The notes beneath the pieces were generated by a model that saw only the letters and a program-made list of their open reading frames with translations, did no database searches and was not told where the DNA came from. A DNA stretch of 62,797 nt, the filler included, from Stramenopiles sp. TOSAG23-6 (Eukaryota), in NCBI GenBank assembly GCA_900128565.1. It is 24 parts of 24 records of this genome, joined end to end, with 100 filler letters (N's around TTAATTAATTAA, not from the genome) between each part and the next. Parts side by side here need not be neighbours in the genome. Positions count along the whole stretch, not along the records: positions 31,526 to 34,045 come from LT637995.1; 23 more parts are not named here. One strand, written 5' to 3'. Shown here in pieces: positions 11,046-34,145 of this stretch (its first letter is position 1; each line of letters starts with the position of its first letter). Both the position numbers and the translations under genes were made by a program.

Positions 11046-11174
11046 ATGTATTGTGAAGAACATTTTTTTTTGTTTACAATTTACATTCGTTAGGTACAAA
11101 ATTTTCATAGTTAAAAAAAAAATAAATTCGAAATTCAAAAAAAAAAAAAATTAATTTTATTTTTTTTTCAGAAC
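11046..11174 (-). other. Family intron TT|GTTCTG...ATACAT (5' end tentative)
   Basis: GAAAATTTTGTACCTAAC and TTCACAATACAT present; starts just before the apparent stop of the NPNP-rich ORF. Confidence 0.55.
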
Positions 11175-12948
11175 AAATTTTCCTTTACCATTTCTAAATA
11201 TTGTTTTGAATTTCGCCCAATGTGTTTTGCCATAATTTCATCCATTTCTGCTTCTAAAGTGGCAGTTTTAAAATCTGTATCGGCTAATAAGGCATCAATA
11301 TCACTTGTAATGCTAGGGTTAGGGTTATCTCTCTCGGCTAATAAGGCATCAATATCATTTGTAATATCATTTGTAATGCTACTAGGGTTAGGGTTGTTTG
11401 TCTTGGTACAATTTTTTGTAGGTGAAGAAAGTCCATATTTCAAATGATTATTCATTGTACGTAAAACAGCTGTCTCTCTTTTCAGCATTTCAGACCATTC
11501 TGTAGGGTTAGGGTTACTATTGTTATCAGAAAATATATTTTTATCTATTGTTGACGGTTTGCTGTTTAAACTATTTTCAATTCCTGGTGTATTTTCATCA
11601 TTAAAAACATCAAAAATAATTTTTTCATCAACTAATATTTTTTTCATATTTCGTGATTGATGGAATTCAAATGATTTAAAGGTGTTTTGATTTTCTTCAT
11701 TCAATGTTGAAATATTTTTAGTTGGGTCTATACTCTCATTTTGTTGATGATTTGGCGGTTCATTCATGGAATAGTTTATTTTATGACAATCTTGTATCGT
11801 ATCAGTAGGGTTAGGGTTATACGATTCATTTATCTTTTTTGAAAAAAAATCGGTATTTCGTATTGTATCATCAGTACTAGGGTTAGGGTTATAGTATTCA
11901 TTAGGGTTAGGGTTTTCACTATACGCTGTTGTGTCCAAATCAGTATATGATTCATCAATAGTATCATGATTAGGGTTAGGGTTATTTGTTGTGTCCAAAT
12001 CTATACCAAGATCACCAAGATTTGTTGGATGATTGAGTTCTGTTTCATAGTCATCATTCACATCATTAGGGTTAGGGTTAGTATATGAAATATCATCGAC
12101 ATCACTACTAGGGTTAGGGTTATACGAAACATCAGTCACATCATTAGGGTTAGGGCTATCATTTTCAAATGAAAATGAACTTGAATAATCATCATTTATG
12201 TCCCTAATAATATCATCATATAATGGTCGTGATTGTACTAAAGTTGTTGTGTTCTTTATAGTGACTTCATTCATGTTTATTTTTTCTACTTTATTTGATT
12301 TATTTTCATCACTGTTCAGCCCTAACCCTAGTATTGTTGTTGATTCTTCAAAATTATCATTTCGTGTATTTTTTATTTCATCGGAAATCAATTCTTCATG
12401 GTTAATATCATGATGAACAGTATCATCATCGCTATTATACATCTTGATTATAGGAGTCGTCGCAGTTCCATCATCAGTTGTCGTACTCATCACAATAGGG
12501 TTAGGGTTACTCATCACAATAGGGTTAGGGTTACTCATCACAATAGGGTTAGGGTTAGGGTTAGGGTTCAATGGTATCGACGACCAAGGCCATTTTTTAC
12601 ATGGAACATTTGAATCATTGTCACCACTAGAATCACTTTTAATACTACAATCACTGAAATCACTGAAATTACTATAGTCAATGTCATTTTCATCTATTGT
12701 GTTTTCTACAGAATTTGAACTGTAGAAAGAAGAACGATATTTTTCTGTATTTTTGGAAAATATTTCAAAATTTACGAAAAAATAAAAAGCTTAGGTACAA
12801 AATTACGTACGAAAAAAAAATTACCAAAAAAATTACCAAAAAAATAAAAATCGAATTTTAAAAAATAAAAAGATACCTGAAATTCGTGTTAATTTCGTTA
12901 GTTCTCTCATTCGTTTTTTCTGTCTTCGATCCACGTCATACAAGACAC
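11168..12948 (-). CDS. Low-complexity D/N/P-rich protein with many NPNP motifs (5' partial; exon 12877-12948, then a long exon from 12744)
   Basis: Frame is continuous after removing 12745-12876; NPNP is encoded by AACCCTAACCCT. Confidence 0.65.
12745..12876 (-). other. Family intron with canonical ends, AG|GTATCT...ATACAG
   Basis: Same internal motifs as the AT-ending copies; in-frame join RISE-KYRS. Confidence 0.85.
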
Positions 12949-32828: not shown

Positions 32829-33325
32829 AAGTAATATACCGCAGCCAAGCAAAAATATGTCATTTTTATTTTTGTAGTTAATTGTTTTTTATAAAAAAAT
32901 GGCATTATTTGAGGAAGTTTGTGATTTTGTAATTGTTTTGTAATTGTTTTGTTTTAAATGTTGAAAACTTCCCTCCCCTCTATTAAAAAAGTGTCCTATA
33001 TATTAAATATCGACATTATATAGTGTTGTAGAATATTTTTGATGGTTTTTTTTTATAATTCCTTCTCTCTCATTCTTTTTTCAAATTAAAAAAATTTAAA
33101 TTCGAGAAGATAAGAGAACAGGTTTGTGACGACATTTTTTGAGTGCATTTTTTGACGCGGTTCGAGAGAGAATCGATCATTGATGTCCTACTAATAAATC
33201 TCAAAATCGTAATAGATAGTTGAAATCGTAATCCTGTACTAAAAAGTTAAAGGAGATTACACTTTTACACATTAGCAGTGACATACTAGTAGTTTCCTCT
33301 TCAATCTTGATTATTTATCATAGTA

Positions 33326-33960
33326 ATGTCGTCTCGCACAGCAAACAATGGTACAATTGTGCATAGTAGTGACAGTAAATCTTTATGGAACTATACGCTC
33401 TCTCCCGGCTGGACTCATGCCGAGGCTGAAGTATATAAACTAGCTTTGATGAAGTATGGTATCGGTAATTACAAACGTGTACTTACAGAGCGTATTTTGC
33501 CAGGAAAGACTGTTGCGCAGCTGAACAATCAATGTCAGCGTTTTTTGGGTCAGCAATCGACAAAGGCATTTCAAGGACTCAGGGTAGATTTACAAGCTGT
33601 TTTTGTTGCCAATGGAAAGCGTACTAATGTGAAAAGAAAAAATAACTGCATTGTAAATACAGGTGATAATCCAACTACAGAAAGTGTACGTATAGCAAAG
33701 GAAAAAAATCGTACATCATATGGTTTGAAACAGGAACGAATCGATGCAATTGTCATGTACGTTTTCATCATTTTTTCAAAAGACAAATTTTGTACCAAAT
33801 GTTGTACCAAATGTTGTACCAAATGTTGTAATTAACGAATTTCGAATTTGACATATTTTTTTTACAGTACATACCAACTCTTCGTCAAGAAGATCTTTCT
33901 TCTGTTTTTGTGAAAACTGATGCGTCCAAGAGACAGACAAAAATCGAAAGGCTTAAGTAT
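33326..33960 (+). CDS. Homolog of the p1 (Myb/homeodomain-like) subunit of the MTA1c/AMT1 DNA 6mA methyltransferase complex (exons 33326-33756, 33873-33960; 3' partial)
   Basis: SKSLWNYTLSPGW, ALMKYGIG, LPGKT, QRFLGQQS and RKNNCIVNTGDNPT match ciliate p1 as recalled; not checked by search. Confidence 0.8.
33757..33872 (+). other. Family intron AT|GTACGT...GTACAT
   Basis: Removal gives IDAIVIPTLR; the CAG at 33867 would lead to a stop. Confidence 0.85.
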
Positions 33961-34145
33961 GTATGTTTTATTTTTTTTCAAATTCGAATATTTTTTCGTA
34001 CGAAATTTTGTACCTAACGAATTTTTTTTCAAATATTTTTCCAAANNNNNNNNNNNNNNNNNNNNNNNNNNNNNNNNNNNNNNNNNNNNTTAATTAATTA
34101 ANNNNNNNNNNNNNNNNNNNNNNNNNNNNNNNNNNNNNNNNNNNN

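Follow-up and report, generated by a model that had tools for sequence, protein, structure and literature searches.

A 116-nt GT..AT intron in a stramenopile genome probably belongs to a large spliceosomal family with a matching U1 snRNA

Results

The locus and its transcripts

The window, meaning the whole 62,797-nucleotide stretch that was analysed, consists of ~2.5-kb contigs of Stramenopiles sp. TOSAG23-6 joined by N spacers. The assembly comprises 21 Mb in 6236 contigs, some of them duplicated or palindromic. A conserved protein gene at 33326 is interrupted by two introns of the same family (Table 1). Homologues of this gene are annotated with Pfam PF00249 (Myb); the predicted protein has no Pfam match of its own. 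The best homologues are 55–60% identical, and one homologue cluster includes a protein labelled Stramenopile MAST-4. The source is probably an uncultured marine stramenopile that has MAST-4 as a relative without belonging to it.

Table 1. Features of the locus at 33326–34045, with positions counted along the window. A slash marks the exon-intron boundary.
Feature	Position	Strand	Evidence or remark
Exon 1, conserved protein gene	33326..33756	+	Difference-free RNA contigs of runs X1 (33272-33754) and X2 (33464-33748)
Rival GT donor, giving an in-frame canonical GT-AG intron with the CAG	33752..33753	+	Unused in RNA contig
Donor site CAT/GTACGTTT	33754..33764	+	11/11 Watson-Crick pairs with the organism's own U1 5' end
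Left copy of 2-nt direct repeat, exonic AT (putative target duplication)	33755..33756	+	
Intron, 116 nt, GT..AT, genome-wide family member	33757..33872	+	RNA joint, frame, homologues
12-nt tandem repeat, 3.9 copies, 97% matches	33784..33830	+	Sits before branch motif
Branch-point-like TTAAC (family: CCTAAC)	33832..33836	+	Putative branch A 33835, 37 nt from intron end
T-tract, ending 9 nt before intron end	33856..33863	+	Family 9-11 nt in 174/181
Skipped CAG	33865..33867	+	Family end changed A-to-G at -6; use leads to a stop at 33911
Acceptor used, CAT	33870..33872	+	AT forms the right-hand direct-repeat copy
Exon 2	33873..33960	+	X6 contig difference-free over 33870-33960
Second family intron	33961..34045	+	Truncated at contig end

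The preliminary description, made from the sequence alone, held that the intron must pass over a good TTTACAG acceptor and end 5 nt later. The reading frame bears this out. The T8-ACAG stretch ends at 33867, and joining GT33757 there reads ITYQLFVKKIFLLFL-stop with a TGA at 33911. Joining after 33872 instead reads IDAIVIPTLRQ... and leaves the frame open to the donor at 33961.

Four seawater RNA runs were compared with the window. One contig (247 nt, depth 11, no other letters) of X6, a polyA metatranscriptome run, skips 116 nt with a joint from 33753 to 33870. Three letters fit both sides of this joint, which corresponds to removal of 33757–33872. The contig departs from the window sequence at 33960, as the donor at 33961 predicts. 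Between junctions at 33867 and 33872, only the latter is present, in one X6 contig; no joint at 33867 is listed among the RNA contigs of the four runs. The other 3/4 runs contain no joint, the X1 and X2 contigs ending at 33754 and 33748, respectively. Skipping of the CAG at 33867 is thus confirmed at low depth, one contig from one run demonstrating presence and not quantity. RNA depth over 33962–34045 is high because of other family copies and is therefore uninformative on the locus at 33757.

The opposite strand of 33757–33875 likewise resembles a family intron, with a GTATGT start and a GTACAT end, because the ends are symmetric.

A genome-wide intron family

The branch motif TTTTGTACCTAAC occurs in 7547 exact copies genome-wide, a count inflated by duplicate contigs, compared with 1 copy for the control. 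There were 401 motif clusters in 0.99 Mb of genome DNA. Intron ends were called with the tested positions masked, which generated 203 introns with both ends above threshold. Excision at the predicted ends gave an open frame in 191/203, compared with 56–73 at shifted ends and 22 unspliced. One of the 191 (window, minus strand near 12750) was dropped from the later analyses, its 3' end having been misplaced by the matrix, and left a sample of 190.

Family introns have a median length of 100 nt. Their ends (n=191) are GT..AT in 154, GT..TT in 9, GT..GT in 5, AT..AT in 4, GT..AG in 4 and others in 15. A strict genome-wide pattern recovered 1977 AT-ending copies and 66 AG-ending copies, and T is the last base of >90% of family introns. 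The 3' consensus is a T-tract followed by about ten bases that end A-A-T-A-C-A-T; intron 33757–33872 differs from it by an A-to-G change at −6, which creates the CAG. The distance from branch motif to intron end is 33–52 nt across the family. Donors (n=190) include 7 that start with AT, for example at window 52821–52933 (minus strand), 3 with GC and 1 with GG. The 3' ends TT, GT, CT, AA and AC are also seen, so both termini are loose.

The preliminary description also reported a 12-nt tandem repeat in the branch region. The repeat is real (Table 1): most members have one or two copies of the unit, which has expanded locally here.

Several side observations concern the distribution of introns. 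The family motif is absent from 8/81 stretches of 9–10 kb, and others hold up to 17. A family intron in a Myb gene (L070:492-582) begins with 8 bases identical to the first 8 of the next exon, the usual donor having been replaced. An ordinary intron outside the family, AG/GTAAGT..TACTAAC..CAG, lies at L038:8182-8284. There are several further AG/GTAAGT donors in the genome, whose pairing with the changed U1 described below is weaker.

U1 and other spliceosomal components

The only U1 found using Rfam is one gene on two duplicate contigs. U5, U2, U1 and U4 lie head to tail within 640 nt (L001:9-645; G000:C1146), and U6 is on a separate contig. The candidate U1 aligns over the full model with 54.1 bits (E 6e-13), the Rfam cut-off being 69.5. 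It starts AAACGUACAUGG where the Rfam model has AUACUUACCUGG, giving a 5' end of AAACGUACAUG in place of the consensus AUACUUACCUG. It thus differs at three positions, which lie opposite donor bases +7, +4 and −1. Family donors (n=190) have T at +7 in 188, T or C at +4 in 186, and T at −1 in 164. Of the 190 donors, 184 bind their own U1 better than a consensus-type U1, with a family mean of 10.1 of 11 pairs. Since G5 of this U1 pairs with C and wobbles with U, GTAC donors beside GTAT donors are accounted for without involving the 3' end.

Sequences matching canonical U1 were also sought. ACTTACCTGG occurred 24 times compared with 21 for the control, and the 12/24 sites scanned with Rfam, which include all three places with the full ATACTTACCTGG, held no U1. 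No canonical U1 was found by the Rfam search of this incomplete assembly, in which 41/253 candidates were scored. From these sequences, U1 appears to have changed to match the family donor start.

The U2 branch-pairing sequence, the U5 loop and the U6 ACAGAGA box match the Rfam models. Prp8 is a close match to the human protein over the 600 residues compared, a stretch that includes the part contacting the 3' splice site. The Prp8 contig carries a family intron; Prp8 itself (L129-L130; G000:C84:10727-18150) has none over ~7 kb. U2AF35 was absent among 15 CCCH matches (23/23 candidates scored) and was not recovered using a motif pattern; the gene may truly be lost, fall in a gap of the assembly or have a match split by an intron. 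A changed 3'-end factor was thus not found in this search, Prp8 being ordinary over 600 residues and U2AF35 not recovered.

The family introns share with U2-type spliceosomal introns precise removal from mRNA, judged by the one RNA contig and the frame test, a GT donor complementary to U1, and a branch motif with a pyrimidine tract, the branch being predicted. They depart from that type at the 3' AG: the intron at 33757 ends in AT, and only 4/191 family members end in AG.

Acceptor choice

The skipped CAG in the RNA contig, together with the family statistics, upholds the earlier suggestion that the acceptor is not chosen by simple first-AG scanning. An AG lies between branch motif and intron end in 60/191 introns, mostly near the branch. 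An earlier YAT is skipped in 168/190, so the acceptor is not the first YAT. Nor is it set by a fixed distance from the branch, since that distance varies from 33 to 52 nt. What is constant is the 3' motif and a spacing of 9–11 nt from T-tract to intron end (174/181).

An AG at −5 is present in 8/190 introns, and its use would lead to a stop within 25 codons in 7/8. G is at least as frequent at −6 (8/190) as at neighbouring A positions (3–5/190), which indicates that new AGs are not purged. A few ordinary AG/GTAAGT..TACTAAC..CAG introns persist, so AG still works as an acceptor within its own context. In family introns, a fixed motif downstream of the T-tract seems to determine the acceptor irrespective of AG.

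A mechanism can be proposed on this basis. The major spliceosome would do the cutting, with U1 marking the donor and U2 reading the CTAAC-type branch. The acceptor would be picked by a long fixed motif and its spacing, namely the T-tract followed by about ten bases ending in YAT, with no preference for AG. A U2AF-type or other changed 3'-end factor probably binds tract and motif and sets the end, and the catalytic core would tolerate G+1 against U−1. The CAG at 33867 would then be a tolerated drift mutation at −6, and a textbook CAG after a pyrimidine tract would lose to the family end.

The alternative that survives best is that both acceptors are used and that the CAG product is frequent but destroyed for its early stop, which would make the spliceosome permissive instead of blind to AG. 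Use of the CAG does put a stop ahead of the next intron, and the genome has ordinary AG introns. The RNA evidence consists of steady-state polyA contigs; contigs drop minor forms, and decay could hide the CAG product. However, if much transcript were lost in this way, G at −6 should be depleted. It is not, even though 7/8 copies with such a G would meet a stop within 25 codons. We consider this alternative unlikely.

Pairing of the intron ends

The preliminary description proposed that pairing between the intron ends may select the acceptor, pointing to a co-varied pair of termini. In a model of this kind, base pairing of the 6-nt inverted ends would bring in the acceptor. This could happen within the spliceosome, where the 3' end, being similar to the 5' end of U1, could replace it, or in the manner of euglenid nonconventional introns. 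The consensus ends are reverse complements, and ATGTAC (33755–33760) and GTACAT (33867–33872) are exact reverse complements, as had been described. The helix occurs in the best fold of intron 33757–33872 with a mean pair probability of 0.28. Across the family, however, the end-pair probability has a median of 0.0006 and exceeds 0.5 in 19/190 introns, and the 33757–33872 region folds worse than 178/200 shuffles.

Covariation analysis of the termini is unfavourable to pairing as the acceptor mechanism, with no significant +4/−6 signal in the sample or genome-wide, an outcome that the preliminary description had named as refuting it. At +4/−6 the 190-intron sample contains C/G 5, C/A 67, T/G 3 and T/A 105 (p=0.27). 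The genome-wide counts are 18/567/27/1410, which lean weakly towards pairing (OR 1.66, 95% CI 0.91–3.03, p=0.13; p=0.30 without duplicate G rows). G at −6 is found in 18/585 GTAC-starting and 27/1437 GTAT-starting copies, and 567/585 (97%) of C-donors keep a C.A mismatch. The weak trend could be explained by a subfamily mark, −8 C, which accompanies +4 C. Among 10 inverted positions, +3/−5 (p=0.048) and +5/−7 (p=0.009) favour pairing, but these values rest on 2–4 sequences. Exon −2/−1 and intron −1/−2 have no pairing excess (p=0.98, 0.79). The co-varied ATGTAC/GTACAT end of this intron is therefore at chance level. Because AT is self-complementary, AT+GTAT..ATAC+AT yields a 6-nt inverted match without any pairing function. 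End pairing is rejected as a likely mechanism, and we regard it as improbable.

The register of the cut

The X6 joint is compatible with four registers alike: CA..TA, AT..AC, TG..CA and GT..AT. A cut 2 bases to the left, giving AT..AC, would place the intron in a known class and would point to a minor or AT-AC-tolerant spliceosome; the RNA joint fits it equally well. The U12 donor consensus is RTATCCTT. No donor of that type is present, and U12 snRNA was not found in the incomplete assembly (42/1595 candidates scored). Mean U1 pairing across the family, of 11 pairs, is 10.1 in the GT register, 5.9 in AT..AC and 3.1 in TG..CA. The AT..AC register creates in-frame stops in 3/203 introns and rescues none. 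In a Myb-repeat intron, the R of c-Myb KQCRERW is retained only if the 3' AT is intronic, and family members with GT..AG ends align with the GT..AT register. A synonymous-site register test found 10/45 synonymous (null 7.8, p=0.24), with a third-position excess of p=0.044 at −2 and p=1 at −1. The AT..AC register is very improbable, and U12-type or AT-AC identity was rejected on both register and donor. The GT..AT register predicted for 33757–33872 is well supported.

Enumeration of all GT/GC..AG pairs that keep the frame open revealed a candidate absent from the first reading, a canonical intron from GT33752 to AG33867, also 116 nt, that has textbook ends, stays in frame and gives IDAIYIP; the chance that it is the main form is slight, as X6 carries the other joint with no differing letters, its donor makes 4/11 pairs with U1 compared with 11/11 for the donor at 33757, and the residue concerned is V in 11, I in 2 and Y in 1 of the 22 homologues aligned (of 44 matches), the 7 best having V or I. 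As the main form it is disfavoured, the RNA contig already contradicting it.

Origin of the family

The last two bases of the exon are identical to the last two of the intron more often than expected (p<0.0005 each at −2 and −1), with no such identity at −3 or −4. AG-ending copies are preceded by an exon AG in 9/66 cases, compared with 12/1977 for AT-ending copies; the 9 include duplicates and are all on one strand. The covarying ends, read from these sequences, are a 2-nt direct repeat of the kind left by target duplication and not an inverted pair; an empty-site allele was not seen. A non-AT exon end combined with an AT intron end was found in 45/188 copies, so the constancy of the 3' AT goes beyond what duplication by itself would give. 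We infer that selection holds the 3' AT as acceptor.

The copies probably spread through the genome as a short DNA element that has inverted ends of 4 nt (GTAT..ATAC) and duplicated 2 nt of its target, in most cases AT. The element would supply the GT donor and the right copy of the target the acceptor, which gives a GT..AT intron. Among 14 related loci for this one gene, 11 are continuous across the 33757–33872 junction, 3 are uninformative and 0/14 have the family motif, so the intron is lineage-specific. Like introners, the family consists of many similar introns at unrelated loci, with a position absent from orthologues and a target duplication, and by this analogy the element acts as introners do.

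Family copies are similar and none is near-identical; neither an autonomous element nor near-identical young copies were found. An intact 420-codon DDE_Tnp_4 ORF lies at L161:389-1651 (G000:C4153), accompanied by two similar direct repeats of 13 nt, one near 210 and the other near 1731. Family ends were not found at this ORF, in a search of one transposase family with 1/5 matches read. Four duplicate contigs carry another DDE_Tnp_4 ORF. The family motif was found 0 times in viral contigs. At about 45775–45970 in the window, a family-like motif lies inside ~35-nt inverted arms, possibly an amplification chimera or a miniature element.

Discussion

The intron at 33757–33872 quite likely belongs with thousands of other spliceosomal introns, each ~100 nt long and probably dispersed as a mobile element, with GT..AT ends, a donor matched by U1 and an acceptor set by a motif. 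Few features of eukaryotic gene expression are as fixed as the 3' AG and the 5' end of U1. In this genome, AT ends most introns and three pairing positions of U1 are changed, with the U2, U5 and U6 motifs and Prp8 unchanged. These features suggest that the splicing apparatus was remodelled to suit a mobile element. A fuller version can be offered tentatively, at somewhat less than even chances: a transposon wave would have rewritten the code of the major spliceosome at both ends, refitting the single U1 to the element end and its target duplication and moving the acceptor from YAG to a motif-set YAT so completely that a perfect CAG after a pyrimidine tract, five bases upstream, is passed over. 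The catalytic core would be unchanged, and U2AF35 might have been lost or replaced.

Two testable questions follow: which part of the spliceosome imposes the AG requirement, and whether the machinery adapts to mobile elements or the reverse. The ~2–4% of copies that have gained an AG at −5 are natural competition experiments. Gene prediction based on AG would misread this genome.

The closest precedents are the AT-ending introns of Fritillaria and the co-evolved U1 of Entamoeba. AT is the commonest 3' end in F. borealis and F. pellucida, at 34% and 44% (PMC13326754; PMC11282704). As far as those accounts go, Fritillaria also resembles this genome in having YAY upstream of the donor and as the last three bases, a transposon origin with target duplication, the major spliceosome and few canonical introns. 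In the stramenopile the 3' end is YAT and the exon ends in AT in ~3/4 of cases, with −3 only loosely pyrimidine. The Fritillaria donors are diverse, mostly AG, with a strictly conserved U1 5' end and a duplicated U2AF (PMC13326754), whereas the stramenopile, an unrelated lineage, has one family, GT donors and a changed U1. Assignment to a Fritillaria-type system of non-GT donors with unchanged U1 was rejected on these last two points.

In Entamoeba and Mastigamoeba the U1 5' end co-evolved with an atypical but uniform donor consensus, to which it is fully complementary (10.1101/2022.06.08.495308). There, the intronic pairing bases changed in intron-poor genomes, and the portion of that text available makes no tie to a repeated element or to AG loss. 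In the stramenopile, the change extends to the base opposite exon −1 and fits the element end together with the target duplication.

Introners of Micromonas, Aureococcus and others likewise comprise numerous short introns that resemble one another and occupy unrelated sites specific to each lineage (PMC11282704, PMC12130899), and one splice site is described as coming from the element and the other from target duplication. A 2025 introner survey gives 3' sites as AG and AC only, and its main text, as far as available, mentions no stramenopile or MAST (PMC12130899). The stramenopile family differs in a 2-nt duplication that yields AT and in inverted ends of only 4 nt.

Euglenid nonconventional introns share non-GT-AG ends, complementary termini and short direct repeats with this family, according to the excerpts available; they require CAG/CTG pairing, which covaries (PMC12501133; PMC11282704). 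Here no such pairing covariation is seen, and the donor, the branch motif and the T-tract are all of the spliceosomal kind. A euglenid-type intron was rejected on the lack of covarying end pairing.

ISL2EU elements are described with a 2-nt AT target duplication (PMC4482050), and DDE_Tnp_4 ORFs occur in the stramenopile genome. The ISL2EU target is given as A/AT/T (PMC4482050). The family flanks do not fit it, position −3 being C in 65, T in 50, A in 43 and G in 32 of 190 and +1 being G in about half, and this candidate was rejected. No report of a GT-AT-dominated stramenopile or of a matching U1 was found in the literature covered, which lay mostly outside subscription papers and survey supplements.

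Some minor features of the assembly were also recorded. Three identical contigs stand in series at window 36665–44618 and, with palindromic contigs elsewhere, point to amplification or assembly artefacts. Telomere-like TAACCC runs occur within exons (NPNPNP) and family introns, for example at window 11168–12790 and in the 29432 and 37309 regions. Stretches L131 and L132 carry partial 18S rRNA and mitochondrial-type rRNA genes.
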